Notes under the pieces: model-generated
Told to the model about the DNA's origin: nothing
The model's database searches: none
Seen by the model: only the letters and a program-made list of their open reading frames with translations
Made by a program: the position numbers and the translations under genes
In this document: in pieces, positions 1 to 7,446 of the stretch
Layout of the letters: each line of letters begins with the position of its first letter
Numbering within the stretch: position 1 is the first letter of the stretch
DNA from: a virus
Taxonomy: Duplodnaviria; Heunggongvirae; Uroviricota; Caudoviricetes
Reading direction: 5' to 3' (one strand)
DNA length: 7,446 nt
IMG/VR virus record: IMGVR_UViG_2675903278_000006

Positions 1-240
1 AATCGTGTTGAGGCCAACGCCCATAATGCGGGCAGTTGCCCGGCATCCAACGCCATTCATGGCCATATCAATGATTTTCTGGTGCGTACCGGGTTGAGAA
101 GCGGTGTAAGTGAACTGCAGTTGCCATGTTTTACGGCAGTGAGAGCAGAGATAGCGCTGATGTCCGGCGGTGCTTTTGCCGTTACGCACCACCCCGTCAG
201 TAGCTGAACAGGAGGGACAGCTGATAGAAACAGAAGCCAC
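1..240 (-). CDS. insA: IS1 InsA, N-terminal 80 codons (3' end outside window); GTG start at 238-240
   Basis: Manual - strand translation from 240 down to 1 gives [80 protein letters not shown]. This matches the InsA sequence as I recall it, including the C-x2-C...C-x2-C zinc finger and the helix-turn-helix segment. It is absent from the ORF track because the frame has no stop inside the window. Confidence 0.88.
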
Positions 241-272
241 TGGAGCACCTCAAAAACACCATCATACACTAA

Positions 273-295
273 ATCAGTAAGTTGGCAGCATCACC
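273..295. repeat. IS1 terminal inverted repeat (IRL); outermost IS1 base at 295
   Basis: The + strand 273-295 is ATCAGTAAGTTGGCAGCATCACC, the reverse complement of the IS1 end GGTGATGCTGCCAACTTACTGAT. Prophage-type sequence begins at 296. Confidence 0.8.
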
Positions 296-776
296 TAAAA
301 CGTCTACTCCTGCTGTTCCAGAATAACTTCATAAAATGGGAGTATTTTTCGGTGACGAGATAATAAGAACAGTTTGCGCTATCACTCTGATGTTGAATGA
401 TGCCCTTCCGTTCTAATTTTTTCATAACCGGGTTACGGCAAGGAGAAGTGATAATAAGATTTCCTGTTTTAAGGAAATCTTTAAATACAGCGATTTCTTT
501 CTCAGATAAACGAAGCAATACTCGTTGCTCTGGTAGTAATGAATAATGCTTTTGAATATGTGCTCGCAATCTTGAGAAGGAAATGGCGACCACGAAAGAA
601 AAGGCAAAAACGATAATCTGAAAGAGCCAAGGCATTTCAGTATAAGCATTGAATGCGACAGTAAACTCTTTCGGTATCAGCCAGAGAGTGAGACCAAAAA
701 TGATAATCGTATACATAAGTCTTTCGAGTGGCTCGTTAGCAAAAAGTTTCAACAATGGAGTAAATACATCCAACAT
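291..776 (-). CDS. sieB: SieB superinfection-exclusion protein (161 codons); last codon and stop codon contributed by the IS1 terminus
   Basis: The - strand frame from ATG (rc of 774-776) reads MLDVFTPLLKLFANEPLERLMYTIIIFGLTLWLIPKEF...WLFQIIVFAFSFVVAISF..., with two hydrophobic segments typical of SieB. A weak SD-like GAGAG lies about 10 nt upstream. The stop TGA (rc of 291-293) is inside the IS1 end and the final Arg codon (294-296) spans the junction. An in-frame open extension up to GTG at 1086-1088 exists but is not favoured. Confidence 0.6.
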   Translation of the reverse strand: MLDVFTPLLKLFANEPLERLMYTIIIFGLTLWLIPKEFTVAFNAYTEMPWLFQIIVFAFSFVVAISFSRLRAHIQKHYSLLPEQRVLLRLSEKEIAVFKDFLKTGNLIITSPCRNPVMKKLERKGIIQHQSDSANCSYYLVTEKYSHFMKLFWNSRSRRFR

Positions 777-1216
777 ATCAATAACTCTCAACTGTAAGGG
801 TATTGAAATGTTAACACAAGCTCTCGCTGTAGGGGTATAGCCGAGACCACCGAAGCCCGGAGGTGGTGAAATAAAACCGGGCACAACACGAAGGCGCATT
901 TCCGATATCCATAAAGAGTCGGTCTTGTCTGTTAAATTTAAATGGTGGAGTGCGCCTCCGGTTGTAAATAACGACATTGCTGTGTGTAGTCCTGGCGGCA
1001 TCAGTTTTTTTCTTGAAGTTCGGCTGATGTCCGCCCTTTTTAAAGTGAATTTTGTGATGCGGTGAATGCGGCTAAGCGCACGTGGCACAGTTAAAAGTCA
1101 TGTTAGTCCTTATTGGTTTGGGTGGGAAAGCCGACTGTAATTGTTAACTGGTTGCAGTCACCTGGAGGCACCAGGCACCGCATCAACAAAGTTCATTTGT
1201 AAAAATGGAGATAATT
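777..1216. promoter_or_regulatory. Divergent sieB / kilR intergenic control region (promoters not resolved)
   Basis: A 440-bp gap separates the divergent sieB and kilR starts. One candidate sigma70-like pair on + is TTGGTT (1113-1118), 17 bp, TGTAAT (1136-1141). A tandem heptamer AGGCACCAGGCACC sits at 1166-1179. None of this is verifiable from sequence alone. Confidence 0.3.
994..1041 (+). terminator. Candidate intrinsic terminator upstream of kilR (GC-rich stem, large loop, T5 tract)
   Basis: GGCGGCATCAG (994-1004) pairs with CTGATGTCCGCC (1024-1035), giving an 11-bp stem with a 1-nt bulge and a 19-nt loop, followed immediately by CTTTTT (1036-1041). The large loop lowers confidence. Confidence 0.3.
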
Positions 1217-1438
1217 ATGATTGCACATCACTTCGGAACTGATGAAATACCACGTCAGTGTGTGACTCCTGGCGATTATGTTCTTCATGAAGGCCGGACA
1301 TATATTGCCTCGGCAAACAATATTAAAAAGCGAAAACTATATATTCGTAACCTGACCACAAAAACATGCATTACTGACCGCATGATTAAAGTCTTCCTCG
1401 GTCGTGATGGTTTACCTGTAAAGGCGGAGTCATGGTGA
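1217..1438 (+). CDS. kilR: KilR, prophage killing protein reported to inhibit cell division (73 aa)
   Basis: Translation [73 protein letters not shown] matches KilR as I recall it. GGAG at 1206-1209 lies 7 nt before ATG 1217. The ORF-track start at 1205 has no SD. Confidence 0.85.
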
Positions 1439-1608
1439 TGACTAAGAAAATAAAATGTGCTTACCACCTTTGCAAAAAAGACGTTGAAGAAAGCAAAGCT
1501 ATTGAAAGAATGCTTCACTTCATGCACGGGATTTTATCAAAAGACGAACCGAGAAAATATTGCAGTGAAGCTTGTGCCGAAAAAGACCAGATGGCACATG
1601 AACTTTAA
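1438..1608 (+). CDS. ydaE: YdaE, small 4-Cys zinc-ribbon-like protein (56 aa), function unknown
   Basis: Not in the ORF track. ATG 1438-1440 overlaps the kilR stop (TGATG). Translation is [56 protein letters not shown] with stop TAA at 1606-1608, and Cys pairs C-x4-C and C-x3-C. An in-frame ATG at 1432 is an alternative start. Confidence 0.75.
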   Translation: MTKKIKCAYHLCKKDVEESKAIERMLHFMHGILSKDEPRKYCSEACAEKDQMAHEL

Positions 1609-1682
1609 TTAATTGACTATTCGAAACTGAATTTATGCCAGAAATGGCAGGTATTCGCTCAACCTTAATTAAGGAGAAAAAC

Positions 1683-1958
1683 ATGATTACCAATTATGAA
1701 GCCACTGTTGTAACTACCGATGACATTGTTCACGAGGTGAATCTGGAAGGAAAGCGCATTGGCTACGTAATTAAAACAGAAAATAAAGAAACCCCATTCA
1801 CTGTGGTTGATATCGATGGTCCATCAGGCAACGTAAAAACACTTGATGAAGGTGTCAAAAAAATGTGCCTGGTGCATATCGGAAAGAATCTGCCCGCAGA
1901 AAAAAAAGCCGAATTTCTGGCAACTCTAATTGCAATGAAATTAAAAGGTGAAATCTGA
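1683..1958 (+). CDS. racC: RacC (91 aa), function unknown
   Basis: Translation MITNYEATVVTTDDIVHEVNLEGKRIGYVIKTENKETPFTVVDIDGPSGNVKTLDEGVKKMCLVHIGKNLPAEKKAEFLATLIAMKLKGEI. A strong SD AAGGAG (1671-1676) lies 6 nt before ATG 1683. The ORF-track start at 1635 lacks an SD. Confidence 0.85.
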   Translation: MITNYEATVVTTDDIVHEVNLEGKRIGYVIKTENKETPFTVVDIDGPSGNVKTLDEGVKKMCLVHIGKNLPAEKKAEFLATLIAMKLKGEI

Positions 1959-1963
1959 AAGAA

Positions 1964-1988
1964 ATAGCCTGCGTATGGCGCAGGCTAT
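1964..1988. repeat. 10-bp perfect inverted repeat (stem-loop) in the racC-recE spacer
   Basis: ATAGCCTGCG (1964-1973) and CGCAGGCTAT (1979-1988) are exact reverse complements with a 5-nt spacer TATGG. On the - strand the stem is followed by TTCTTTCAGATTT, which is terminator-like. On the + strand it is not followed by a T tract. Confidence 0.4.
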
Positions 1989-2059
1989 GAACAGTGTGTA
2001 TCCGGCAAGATCATTCACTGAACAAAACGAATTTTAATCTGAGTTGAGGTTAAAAAACA

Positions 2060-4660
2060 ATGAGCACAAAACCACTCTTCCTGTTACGGAAAGCGAAAAA
2101 ATCATCCGGTGAACCTGACGTCGTCCTGTGGGCAAGCAACGATTTTGAATCGACCTGTGCCACTCTGGACTACCTGATCGTTAAGTCAGGTAAAAAACTG
2201 AGCAGCTATTTTAAAGCTGTTGCCACGAATTTTCCTGTCGTTAATGACCTGCCCGCTGAAGGTGAGATCGATTTTACCTGGAGTGAACGCTATCAACTCA
2301 GCAAAGACTCCATGACATGGGAACTAAAACCGGGAGCAGCACCAGACAACGCTCACTATCAAGGCAATACCAACGTCAACGGCGAAGACATGACTGAGAT
2401 TGAGGAGAATATGCTACTCCCAATTTCTGGCCAGGAACTGCCCATTCGTTGGCTTGCTCAACACGGCAGCGAAAAACCGGTAACGCACGTTTCACGCGAC
2501 GGACTCCAGGCATTACACATTGCTCGGGCTGAAGAACTACCGGCTGTTACTGCCCTGGCTGTTTCCCACAAAACCAGCCTGCTCGACCCGCTGGAAATTC
2601 GCGAACTCCACAAACTGGTTCGTGACACTGACAAAGTTTTCCCTAATCCTGGTAATTCAAACCTGGGACTGATAACTGCTTTTTTCGAAGCATACCTGAA
2701 CGCTGACTACACCGATCGAGGACTGCTGACAAAAGAGTGGATGAAGGGTAATCGTGTTTCACACATCACTCGCACGGCTTCCGGTGCTAATGCTGGCGGC
2801 GGAAACCTCACCGATCGCGGCGAAGGTTTCGTACACGATCTGACGTCACTGGCGCGCGACGTAGCCACTGGCGTACTGGCCCGTTCAATGGATCTGGACA
2901 TCTATAACCTTCATCCGGCACACGCTAAACGCATTGAGGAAATTATCGCTGAAAATAAACCGCCCTTTTCTGTTTTCCGCGACAAATTCATCACCATGCC
3001 TGGCGGGCTGGATTATTCCCGCGCCATCGTGGTTGCGTCCGTAAAAGAAGCACCAATTGGGATCGAGGTCATCCCCGCGCACGTCACTGAATATCTGAAC
3101 AAAGTACTGACTGAAACCGATCATGCCAACCCTGATCCGGAAATCGTGGATATTGCCTGCGGTCGCTCCTCTGCCCCGATGCCGCAGCGAGTAACAGAAG
3201 AAGGAAAACAGGATGATGAAGAAAAACCGCAACCATCTGGAACAACGGCAGTTGAACAGGGAGAGGCTGAAACAATGGAACCGGACGCAACTGAACATCA
3301 TCAGGACACGCAGCCGCTGGATGCTCAGTCACAGGTAAATTCTGTTGATGCGAAATATCAGGAACTGCGGGCAGAACTCCATGAAGCCCGGAAAAACATT
3401 CCATCAAAAAATCCTGTCGATGCCGATAAATTGCTTGCTGCATCACGTGGTGAATTTGTTGACGGAATTAGCGACCCGAACGATCCGAAATGGGTAAAGG
3501 GGATCCAGACTCGCGATTGTGTGTACCAGAACCAGCCAGAAACGGAAAAAACCAGCCCAGATATGAATCAACCTGAGCCAGTAGTGCAACAGGAACCGGA
3601 AATAGCCTGCAATGCCTGCGGCCAGACTGGCGGGGATAACTGCCCTGACTGTGGTGCGGTGATGGGCGACGCAACATACCAGGAAACATTCGCTGAAGAG
3701 AGTCAGGTTGAAGCTAAGGAAAATGATCCGGAGGAAATGGAAGGCGCTGAACATCCGCACAATGAGAATGCTGGCAGCGATCCGCATCGCGATTGCAGTG
3801 ATGAAACTGGCGAAGTCGCAGATCCCGTAATCGTAGAAGACATAGAGCCAGGTATTTATTACGGAATTTCGAATGAGAATTACCACGCGGGTCCCGGTAT
3901 CAGTAAGTCTCAGCTCGATGACATTGCTGATACTCCGGCACTATATTTGTGGCGTAAAAATGCCCCCGTGGACACCACAAAGACAAAAACGCTCGATTTA
4001 GGAACTGCTTTCCACTGCCGGGTACTTGAACCGGAAGAATTCAGTAACCGCTTTATCGTAGCACCTGAATTTAACCGCCGTACAAACGCCGGAAAAGAAG
4101 AAGAGAAAGCGTTTCTGATGGAATGCGCAAGCACAGGAAAAACGGTTATCACTGCGGAAGAAGGCCGGAAACTTGAACTCATGTATCAAAGCGTTATGGC
4201 TTTGCCGCTGGGGCAATGGCTTGTTGAAAGCGCCGGACACGCTGAATCATCAATTTACTGGGAAGATCCTGAAACAGGAATTTTGTGTCGGTGCCGTCCG
4301 GACAAAATTATCCCTGAATTTCACTGGATCATGGACGTGAAAACTACGGCGGATATTCAACGATTCAAAACCGCTTATTACGACTACCGCTATCACGTTC
4401 AGGATGCATTCTACAGTGACGGTTATGAAGCACAGTTTGGAGTGCAGCCAACTTTCGTTTTTCTGGTTGCCAGCACAACTATTGAATGCGGACGTTATCC
4501 GGTTGAAATTTTCATGATGGGCGAAGAAGCAAAACTGGCAGGTCAACAGGAATATCACCGCAATCTGCGAACCCTGTCTGACTGCCTGAATACCGATGAA
4601 TGGCCAGCTATTAAGACATTATCACTGCCCCGCTGGGCTAAGGAATATGCAAATGACTAA
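2060..4660 (+). CDS. recE: RecE, exonuclease VIII (866 aa), 5'-3' dsDNA exonuclease with a C-terminal PD-(D/E)XK nuclease domain
   Basis: An 866-codon ORF with SD GAGG about 10 nt upstream. The C-terminal segment [18 protein letters not shown] places Asp at codon 748 (4301-4303), Asp at 759 (4334-4336) and Lys at 761 (4340-4342), matching the RecE catalytic triad as I recall it. The stop TAA (4658-4660) overlaps the recT start. Confidence 0.95.
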
Positions 4661-5462
4661 GCAACCACCAATCGCAAAAGCCGATCTGCAAAAAACTCAG
4701 GGAAACCGTGCACCAGCAGCAGTTAAAAATAGCGACGTGATTAGTTTTATTAACCAGCCATCAATGAAAGAGCAACTGGCAGCAGCTCTTCCACGCCATA
4801 TGACGGCTGAACGTATGATCCGTATCGCCACCACAGAAATTCGTAAAGTTCCGGCGTTAGGAAACTGTGACACTATGAGTTTTGTCAGTGCGATCGTACA
4901 GTGTTCACAGCTCGGACTTGAGCCAGGTAGCGCCCTCGGTCATGCATATTTACTGCCTTTTGGTAATAAAAACGAAAAGAGCGGTAAAAAGAACGTTCAG
5001 CTAATCATTGGCTATCGCGGCATGATTGATCTGGCTCGCCGTTCTGGTCAAATCGCCAGCCTGTCAGCCCGTGTTGTCCGTGAAGGTGACGAGTTTAGCT
5101 TCGAATTTGGCCTTGATGAAAAGTTAATACACCGCCCGGGAGAAAACGAAGATGCCCCGGTTACCCACGTCTATGCTGTCGCAAGACTGAAAGACGGAGG
5201 TACTCAGTTTGAAGTTATGACGCGCAAACAGATTGAGCTGGTGCGCAGCCTGAGTAAAGCTGGTAATAACGGGCCGTGGGTAACTCACTGGGAAGAAATG
5301 GCAAAGAAAACGGCTATTCGTCGCCTGTTCAAATATTTGCCCGTATCAATTGAGATCCAGCGTGCAGTATCAATGGATGAAAAGGAACCACTGACAATCG
5401 ATCCTGCAGATTCCTCTGTATTAACCGGGGAATACAGTGTAATCGATAATTCAGAGGAATAA
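4653..5462 (+). CDS. recT: RecT, single-strand annealing protein (RecT/Red-beta family, 269 aa)
   Basis: Translation from ATG 4653 is [35 protein letters not shown]...[17 protein letters not shown] (4640-4644) lies 8 nt upstream. ATGACTAA gives an 8-nt overlap with recE. The ORF-track start at 4596 is an in-frame extension inside recE. Confidence 0.95.
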
Positions 5463-5469
5463 TTCAGCC

Positions 5470-5506
5470 TGGCGGTGTAATGCACCGCCAACTTGAAATA
5501 TTTTTT
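5470..5506 (+). terminator. Weak terminator/attenuator candidate between recT and ralR
   Basis: TGGCGGTG (5470-5477) pairs with CACCGCCA (5483-5490) around a 5-nt loop. A T6 run (5501-5506) follows, but only after a 10-nt spacer, so this is atypical for an intrinsic terminator. Confidence 0.25.
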
Positions 5507-5518
5507 ATGAGAAAAATT

Positions 5519-5713
5519 ATGAGATATGACAATGTTAAACCATGTCCATTTTGTGGTTGTCCATCAGTAACGGTGAAAGCCATTTCAGGATATTACCGAG
5601 CGAAGTGTAACGGATGCGAATCCCGAACCGGTTATGGTGGAAGTGAAAAAGAAGCACTCGAAAGATGGAATAAACGAACCACTGGAAATAATAATGGAGG
5701 TGTTCATGTATAA
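5519..5713 (+). CDS. ralR: RalR (Lar) restriction-alleviation protein, also reported as a DNase toxin (64 aa)
   Basis: Translation MRYDNVKPCPFCGCPSVTVKAISGYYRAKCNGCESRTGYGGSEKEALERWNKRTTGNNNGGVHV has two C-x2-C pairs. The start was chosen to give the 64-aa protein I recall. The SD is weak, and in-frame ATGs at 5507 and 5480 are alternatives. Confidence 0.8.
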   Translation: MRYDNVKPCPFCGCPSVTVKAISGYYRAKCNGCESRTGYGGSEKEALERWNKRTTGNNNGGVHV

Positions 5714-5915
5714 AATTACCGCCACTATTGAAAAGGAAGGTGGCACTCCTACTAACTGGACAAGATATTCAAAATCTAAACTAACGAAATCAGAATGCGA
5801 AAAAATGCTCTCAGGTAAAAAAGAAGCAGGCGTTTCCAGAGAGCAGAAAGTAAAACTGATAAATTTTAATTGCGAGAAACTTCAGTCCTCGAGAATTGCA
5901 TTGTATTCAAATTAA
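5706..5915 (+). CDS. ydaC: YdaC (69 aa), function unknown
   Basis: Translation MYKITATIEKEGGTPTNWTRYSKSKLTKSECEKMLSGKKEAGVSREQKVKLINFNCEKLQSSRIALYSN. GGAGG (5696-5700) lies 5 nt before ATG 5706. The gene overlaps the ralR 3' end by 8 nt. The ORF-track start at 5634 is an extension. Confidence 0.7.
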   Translation: MYKITATIEKEGGTPTNWTRYSKSKLTKSECEKMLSGKKEAGVSREQKVKLINFNCEKLQSSRIALYSN

Positions 5916-5926
5916 AACTTCATAGC

Positions 5927-5942
5927 TGATTATTAATAATCA
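5927..5942. promoter_or_regulatory. 16-bp perfect AT-rich palindrome TGATTATTAATAATCA upstream of xisR-intR
   Basis: The sequence at 5927-5942 equals its own reverse complement. It lies in the 78-bp ydaC-xisR spacer, about 50 bp before the xisR start. Confidence 0.3.
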
Positions 5943-5993
5943 ACATCGGGCGTCAATTTCAGTCTAACATTGGCGCCTGCCAGAGGTGATGCG

Positions 5994-6209
5994 ATGGCAC
6001 AAGTAATCTTTAATGAAGAGTGGATGGTTGAATACGGCCTGATGCTTCGCACTGGTCTGGGGGCCAGACAAATTGAAGCATACCGCCAGAACTGTTGGGT
6101 GGAGGGCTTCCACTTCAAACGAGTATCTCCTTTAGGTAAGCCAGACAGCAAACGAGGGATTATCTGGTACAACTATCCAAAGATAAATCAGTTTATCAAA
6201 GACTCATGA
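5994..6209 (+). CDS. xisR: XisR (YdaQ), putative excisionase (71 aa)
   Basis: Translation [79 protein letters not shown] (5983-5988) lies 5 nt before ATG 5994. The ORF-track start at 5970 is TTG. The gene sits immediately upstream of the integrase. Confidence 0.8.
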
Positions 6210-6210
6210 T

Positions 6211-7446
6211 ATGTCTAAATTACCAACAGGTGTCGAGATTAGAGGTAGATACATTCGCATCTGGTTCATGTTTCGAGGAAAACGATGTCGGGAAACATTA
6301 AAAGGCTGGGAGATTACAAACAGTAATATTAAAAAGGCCGGAAATTTAAGAGCGCTGATAGTTCATGAAATAAACTCCGGTGAATTTGAGTATTTAAGAC
6401 GTTTTCCCCAGTCCAGCACTGGGGCAAAAATGGTGACAACGAGAGTCATAAAAACGTTCGGAGAGCTTTGTGATATCTGGACAAAAATTAAAGAGACAGA
6501 GTTAACAACAAACACAATGAAGAAAACGAAATCACAATTAAAAACACTCAGAATAATAATTTGTGAAAGTACCCCGATATCACATATTCGTTATAGCGAT
6601 ATCTTAAACTACCGGAATGAACTGCTGCATGGAGAAACGCTTTACCTGGATAATCCAAGATCCAACAAAAAAGGAAGAACCGTGCGCACAGTTGATAACT
6701 ATATCGCCCTGCTCTGTTCGCTGTTGCGTTTTGCGTATCAGTCGGGATTTATATCAACCAAACCATTTGAAGGAGTAAAAAAATTACAGCGAAACAGAAT
6801 AAAGCCTGATCCGTTATCTAAAACAGAATTCAATGCATTAATGGAAAGTGAAAAAGGACAGAGCCAGAACTTGTGGAAATTTGCCGTTTACTCAGGACTT
6901 CGTCACGGGGAACTGGCAGCTCTGGCGTGGGAGGATGTGGATCTCGAAAAGGGAATAGTGAATGTCAGAAGAAACCTGACGATACTTGATATGTTCGGTC
7001 CCCCAAAAACAAATGCCGGGATCCGAACAGTAACACTACTGCAGCCTGCTCTTGAAGCACTGAAGGAGCAATACAAACTGACCGGGCATCATCGCAAAAG
7101 CGAAATCACCTTTTATCATCGGGAGTACGGCAGAACCGAAAAGCAAAAACTGCATTTTGTTTTCATGCCCAGGATGTGTAACGGAAAACAAAAACCTTAT
7201 TACTCGGTAAGCAGTTTGGGGGCAAGGTGGAATGCAGCAGTAAAACGTGCTGGTATTCGCCGCCGTAATCCGTACCATACGCGGCATACTTTTGCCTGCT
7301 GGCTGTTGACGGCAGGAGCGAACCCGGCATTTATAGCCAGCCAAATGGGGCATGAAACTGCGCAGATGGTGTATGAAATTTACGGTATGTGGATTGATGA
7401 CATGAACGACGAACAGATAGCCATGTTGAATGCGCGGTTATCGTAG
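6211..7446 (+). CDS. intR: IntR, tyrosine recombinase / phage integrase (411 aa)
   Basis: A 411-codon ORF whose start is 1 nt after the xisR stop (TGATATG). The C-terminal region carries tyrosine-recombinase hallmarks (RHGELAALAWEDVD, then HTRHTFACWLL, then VYEIYGMW with the presumptive catalytic Tyr). The window ends at its TAG stop. Confidence 0.93.
   Translation: MSKLPTGVEIRGRYIRIWFMFRGKRCRETLKGWEITNSNIKKAGNLRALIVHEINSGEFEYLRRFPQSSTGAKMVTTRVIKTFGELCDIWTKIKETELTTNTMKKTKSQLKTLRIIICESTPISHIRYSDILNYRNELLHGETLYLDNPRSNKKGRTVRTVDNYIALLCSLLRFAYQSGFISTKPFEGVKKLQRNRIKPDPLSKTEFNALMESEKGQSQNLWKFAVYSGLRHGELAALAWEDVDLEKGIVNVRRNLTILDMFGPPKTNAGIRTVTLLQPALEALKEQYKLTGHHRKSEITFYHREYGRTEKQKLHFVFMPRMCNGKQKPYYSVSSLGARWNAAVKRAGIRRRNPYHTRHTFACWLLTAGANPAFIASQMGHETAQMVYEIYGMWIDDMNDEQIAMLNARLS

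Follow-up and report, generated by a model that had tools for sequence, protein, structure and literature searches.

When an insertion element comes to lie at the very end of a prophage gene, the question arises of whether the gene is broken and by what event the element arrived there. This question is posed at the left end of the stretch of DNA analysed here (7446 nucleotides, referred to below as the window), where sieB, a gene of the Rac prophage of E. coli, meets one terminus of IS1. In lambda and P22, sieB is the gene for superinfection exclusion B, and IS1 is a 768-bp element that is classically polar. Both IS1 and Rac sieB are textbook entities, and the novelty is limited to the particular site at which they are joined. 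The features of the junction and the IS1 sites of related genomes are listed in Table 1.

Table 1. Features at the IS1–sieB junction and positions of IS1 in related Rac prophages, in window coordinates.
Feature	Position	Strand	Basis or remark
IS1 nt 1–295 (left part)	1–295	minus	Identity to MG1655 IS1A and to the FACU 2024 copy
insA codons 1–80 of 91; GTG start at 240–238, cut by the window edge	1–240	minus	Translation and Pfam/NCBIfam
Promoter-like site CTGCCA-16-TATGAT	261–288	minus	Consensus scan; position is that of the weak insA promoter overlapping the IRL
IRL GGTGATGCTGCCAACTTACTGAT (minus-strand reading)	273–295	minus	Direct sequence reading; equals the IS1A terminus
sieB stop codon TGA, equal to IS1 nt 3–5 (from GGTGATGC)	291–293	minus	Sequence reading
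sieB, IS1-capped allele, 161 codons plus TGA stop	291–776	minus	Pfam PF14163; start matches RefSeq in relatives
Junction codon AGG (Arg161)	294–296	minus	First base from sieB, last two are IS1 nt 1–2
Presumptive target TAAAACGTC (9 bp) or TAAAACGT (8 bp)	296–304	.	Inference only
IS1 in relatives	371–379		Inside sieB, strain 573
IS1 in relatives	1200–1207		Upstream of kilR, FACU 2024 and JX21CE35
IS1 in relatives	1292–1300		In kilR, H7
IS1 in relatives	1616–1624 and 7054–7062		JX21CE35
IS1 in relatives	5407–5414 and 5952–5960		2017.13.01CC

The original prediction had read the first 295 positions as the reverse complement of the IS1 left end, including the IRL and the N-terminus of InsA, and alignment to reference copies bore this out. 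The reverse complement is identical to MG1655 IS1A (NC_000913.3 19796–20563) at 294 of 295 positions, the sole mismatch being at IS1 nt 262, and to an IS1 copy of E. coli FACU 2024 at all 295 (BLAST, E 5.6e-160). The fragment covers the IRL, the presumed insA promoter and InsA residues 1–80. The terminal inverted repeat GGTGATGCTGCCAACTTACTGAT is present at the very end of the element, as at the IS1A left end, and is followed ≈55 nt further in by the start of the insA ORF, which encodes a zinc ribbon and a helix-turn-helix. These 80 residues match the Pfam families Zn_ribbon_InsA (PF03811, 1.3e-21) and HTH_Tnp_IS1 (PF12759, 2e-24) and the NCBIfam IS1 family transposase model (1e-22). The window copy thus shares with MG1655 IS1A the IRL, the insA start and InsA residues 1–80; it differs in the substitution at nt 262, in its chromosomal location and in being visible for only the first 295 of 768 bp. 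The window opens at IS1 nt 295, with the A6C frameshift site, insB′ (the DDE catalytic domain) and the IRR beyond its left edge. The CTGCCA-16-TATGAT site, which the consensus scan also found in the FACU 2024 copy, we take to be the insA promoter, an assignment drawn from the 2025 study of IS1 transposition and from the general background on IS1. The IRL of IS1 and a promoter overlapping it are described there (PMC12428005).

From position 296 onwards, the window consists of the Rac left arm, with sieB on the minus strand and kilR, ydaE, racC, recE, recT, ralR, rcbA, xisR and intR on the plus strand, in the same order as in the Rac prophages of MG1655 and S171-1. Positions 296–4899 are colinear with MG1655 Rac (99.85% identity), and the 7151 bases of 296–7446 are 100% identical to the IS-free S171-1, EC20-72C-1, BL12, GS04 and BHD6, all of them complete E. 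coli genomes. The last three nucleotides of the window (7444–7446) are the intR stop codon, and the window comprises the Rac left arm from sieB to intR without the host flank (ttcA in relatives). Within this arm, the RalA antitoxin sRNA is found at 5712–5890 on the minus strand (Rfam RF02694, 225 bits), antisense to the ralR/rcbA region, and the RalR-RalA type I toxin-antitoxin pair is intact. Positions 945–1042 (plus strand), between sieB and kilR, are the counterpart of the kilS small RNA annotated in MG1655 (b4833); they matched no Rfam family.

In the IS-free MG1655 and S171-1 prophages, the sequence across the end of sieB reads ...AGCTAACGAT followed by TAAAACGTCTACTCC, whereas the window has ...GGCAGCATCACC followed by the same TAAAACGTCTACTCC. 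The window is colinear with the MG1655 sieB from 296, and because the base before the break differs (T vs. C), the junction can be placed exactly between 295 and 296, at the outermost nucleotide of IS1, which is where the chemistry of transposition would put it. On the kilR side, the gene is colinear with its orthologues in MG1655 and S171-1, and on the ydaF side the sequence is replaced by IS1. In IS-free genomes, sieB and ydaF are convergent and their stop codons overlap. The native 3′ end of sieB is AGA CGT TTT AAT CGT TAG (R R F N R stop), yielding a protein of 162 aa that ends in ...NSRSRRFNR, and that in the window is AGA CGT TTT AGG TGA (R R F R stop), yielding 161 aa that end in ...NSRSRRFR. 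The IS1 terminus GGTGA, joined after the first base of codon 161, completes the AGG codon and supplies the TGA. That the AGG codon straddles the junction and that the TGA comes from the IS1 end had both been predicted, and both hold to the base; the predicted alteration of the SieB C-terminus by “a residue or two” corresponds to the exchange of Asn161-Arg162 for a single Arg161. This 3′ end and stop codon are not shared by the IS-free alleles, which use the native TAG, 8 nt further on. All three reading frames into the IS1 left end close soon, with stops within 0, 6 or 8 codons, and the immediate stop is therefore unremarkable. A 265-aa ORF at 291–1088 is an unsupported upstream extension of the same frame, as the RefSeq start of sieB is the ATG at 776.

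The SieB protein encoded in the window matches PF14163 with 107.3 bits (cut-off 26) over residues 21–153, compared to 109.4 bits over residues 21–160 for native K-12 SieB. Residues 1–160 are identical to those of S171-1 SieB (WP_053294904.1), and only I48M separates them from the Rac SieB of MG1655 (b1353). Met48 (codon 633–635, minus strand) is common to S171-1 and the other closest relatives, while K-12 has Ile48. The tail differs from that of the native protein of MG1655 and S171-1: 162 aa with an FNR end and a TAG that overlaps the ydaF stop, against 161 aa with an FR end and a TGA supplied by IS1. A diverged E. coli SieB allele, 37% identical, has a longer, unrelated tail after a conserved FW...R(F/W)N stretch. 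SieB with the RRFR end is probably still functional, judging from its sequence, since it retains the hydrophobic part predicted at the N-terminus, almost the whole Pfam match and a tail that is still basic (SRSRRFR in place of SRSRRFNR), and since the tail of the 37% identical protein differs and is longer. The C-terminal change is not proven neutral, because Asn161 is also present in this diverged allele (one diverged homologue aligned). Among phage records (tblastn, 1e-5), SieB was found in only three Rac-like phages, all ending in FNR. In these phages, vB_EcoS-666R9, -673R7 and -613R10 (ON470614.1, ON470616.1 and ON470590.1), SieB is 99–100% identical to Rac SieB, and Rac-like phages carrying sieB are therefore still circulating. 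The sieB genes of lambda and P22 belong to the same Pfam family, PF14163, and are found at roughly the corresponding place on the map of a lambdoid prophage, in its early-left region; they are too diverged from Rac sieB for tblastn at 1e-5, and have no IS there.

The IS1–sieB junction had no contiguous match in 5426 complete E. coli genomes (megablast of positions 1–900); eight complete E. coli genomes covered at least 80% of this query, all with IS1 at other positions. It was likewise missing from the plasmid and phage collections (megablast of positions 150–600) and from viral, metagenome and species-representative contigs (exact 32-mer and 24-mer scans). No protein record matched exactly the 161-aa SieB or its 141- and 265-aa alternative-start versions, and no report of IS1 in sieB was found in the literature. 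The absence of the junction from the collections searched indicates that it is private to an unsampled strain, which fits a young event. As there is no second sequence with the junction, the observation rests on a single assembly.

Relatives with an identical Rac arm carry IS1 at 27 to at least 40 places per genome. At least seven further sites within the same 7 kb are occupied by IS1 in these relatives, all of them with a duplication of 8 or 9 bp (loci L001, L005, L006, L008 and L009), and the Rac left arm in the E. coli lineage of the window is a recurrent IS1 target. Strains 573, ECZP248 and H1 resemble the window in having IS1 in the sieB gene of Rac in the same orientation, where the 9-bp duplication AGTTTGCGC identifies a simple insertion. 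In this case, the element lies ≈75 bp deeper in sieB (371–379) and the gene is annotated in RefSeq as two pseudogene fragments, while in the window the last two residues are changed. In NT1F31, W444 and LCP22S3_I2, an IS1 end within 17 bp of the window junction adjoins a full-length sieB. Unlike in the window, however, the element is in the opposite orientation, with the IRR facing sieB, the junction is inside the 3′ end of ydaF, and the native FNR-TAG end is kept. This single IS1 sits between perfect 296-bp direct repeats (L007 2984–3279 and 4048–4343) that span from the ydaF 3′ end to the equivalent of window position 574 in sieB, leaving one partial and one complete sieB. Such an arrangement suggests that two IS1 insertions, of which one was 17 bp from the window site, recombined with each other. 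AF3, MSB1_4I and SCU-172 (L004) have an IS1 in the same orientation upstream of a ydaG-like gene, with no duplication and with non-Rac DNA beyond it. In ET846 (L013 4132–5020), sieB through xisR are deleted and IS1 directly connects a truncated ydaF with the sequence upstream of intR, so that here an IS1-bounded deletion has clearly removed the entire Rac left arm. In total, of 11 IS1 copies in or beside the Rac prophages of relatives, eight have 8–9 bp duplications, two border deletions or rearrangements, and one is inside the 296-bp duplication.

The likeliest reading of the window junction is a simple insertion with an 8–9 bp duplication: a copy of IS1 would have transposed into the last codons of Rac sieB, in the same transcriptional direction as the gene. 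IS1 makes target duplications of 8 or 9 bp (PMC12428005), and the duplication here could be 8 rather than 9 bp, since three of the eight duplications in relatives are 8 bp. The target region has a GC content of 37–41%, vs. 55% inside IS1, and IS1 is known for its many insertions, which are strain-specific and over-represented in AT-rich DNA of horizontal origin and in genomic islands, with ≈160 IS1 sites mapped in 95 ST131 genomes (PMC8764528). A simple insertion predicts that, in the window orientation, the far IS1 end reads ...GGTAATGAC and comes after ...AGCTAACGATTAAAACGT(C) and an intact ydaF. The target is located 4 nt outside the ydaF stop, and a simple insertion would therefore leave ydaF intact beyond the element. 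Neither the predicted second junction (ydaF, TAAAACGTC and the IRR, with a 9-bp duplication) nor a synthetic IS1 insertion in the opposite orientation at the same site had a contiguous match among the complete E. coli genomes. The neighbours expected beyond sieB are ydaF and the ydaG-like gene. At the position of racR, the closest relatives have a gene for a protein of 139 aa (WP_000362155.1; L003 5022–5441, also in L001 and L006–L009) that has neither a Pfam match nor detectable similarity to K-12 RacR. The immunity module of these relatives is a different allele from the K-12 racR-ydaS-ydaT, and since no RacR homologue occupies the racR position in them, a search for racR beyond the IS1 could mislead.

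A simple insertion has to be weighed against two other accounts of the same join. IS1 could instead have mediated an adjacent deletion or an inversion, or have recombined with another IS1, so that ydaF, the ydaG-like gene and the immunity module were deleted or moved and no duplication was formed. The window stops inside IS1, where nothing contradicts such an event, and the same region provides examples in AF3, MSB1_4I and SCU-172, in ET846 and in NT1F31. On the other hand, the clean 8–9 bp duplications of eight of the 11 copies in relatives speak against it. These counts are the reason why we rate a simple insertion as fairly probable and a deletion or rearrangement as unlikely. The distinction matters only for the DNA beyond the window, as the junction on the sieB side is the same under both models. 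The other account is that the join is an artefact of assembly at a contig end, where an IS1 repeat was misjoined to sieB. Consistent with this, none of the collections searched contains another copy of the junction, and the window edge, a place where repeats give rise to misjoins, is 295 bases away. However, the break falls exactly at the first nucleotide of IS1, for which a random misjoin would have a chance of ≈1 in 768, and with its AT-rich prophage DNA the flank is a typical IS1 target (PMC8764528). The precision at the IS1 terminus thus favours transposition over misassembly, and we consider an artefact very improbable.

A further alternative is that the insertion was adaptive, with the IS1 end acting as an outward promoter for kilR-racC-recE-recT in the manner of an sbcA mutation. 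The outward −35 box of IS1, TTGGCA (282–287), can form hybrid promoters (PMC8764528), and recET lie downstream on the plus strand. At a distance of 16–18 bp past this −35 box, however, the flank reads CTACTC, TACTCC or ACTCCT, with at most two of six matches to TATAAT, and ≈900 bp, including the antisense sieB, separate the junction from kilR. A hybrid outward promoter at the junction was also rejected by the promoter scan, which found no plus-strand site there but did find a 10/12 site at the FACU 2024 junction. We regard an adaptive origin of this kind as scarcely credible. In FACU 2024 itself (L001 5667–5696; the same site is found in JX21CE35, L009), the IS1 end and its flank form TTGGCA-18-GATAAT, a 10/12 match at the equivalent of window positions 1200–1215. 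The GATAAT (1210–1215) ends 1 nt before the kilR ATG (1217–1219), and because this −10 adjoins the ATG, a transcript would probably start inside kilR and continue into ydaE-racC-recET. In the window, the IS1 would separate the immunity-side genes from kilR-recET-xis-int without creating an outward promoter. Separation from upstream transcription through IS1 polarity is a likelier effect than activation of kilR-recET by a promoter.

Few prophage genes are expected to be active in a lysogen, and sieB is among them. In the window, 2 nt separate the sieB stop codon from the −35-like hexamer of the CTGCCA-16-TATGAT site, and a sequence scan found no terminator-like site between sieB and insA. Co-transcription is possible because the IS1 is located head-to-tail behind sieB with no terminator detected between them: sieB transcripts would run into the IRL and insA, and read-through is plausible. 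According to the 2025 study of IS1 transposition, read-through from upstream stimulates IS1, since chromosomal transposition of IS1 drops when transcription from upstream is blocked (PMC12428005). Machida et al. is also among the references of that study. The direction of any read-through effect on the window IS1 is uncertain. A copy co-transcribed with sieB might be a transcriptionally boosted donor, tying IS1 activity to prophage expression, and could feed the IS1 expansion of the lineage, a scenario that we consider improbable.

Taken together, we consider, with a probability of about 80%, that the IS1 in sieB is an insertion polymorphism of recent date, specific to its strain and probably near-neutral, in a lineage of E. 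coli that is rich in IS1. For annotation, the value of the finding is that the window sieB is a complete ORF with a stop codon derived from IS1 and not a pseudogene. The insertion itself is ordinary biology, probably with little effect. Should the immunity module turn out to be deleted on the far side of the element, what remains would be an orphaned kilR-recET arm, which would bear on how the prophage decays.
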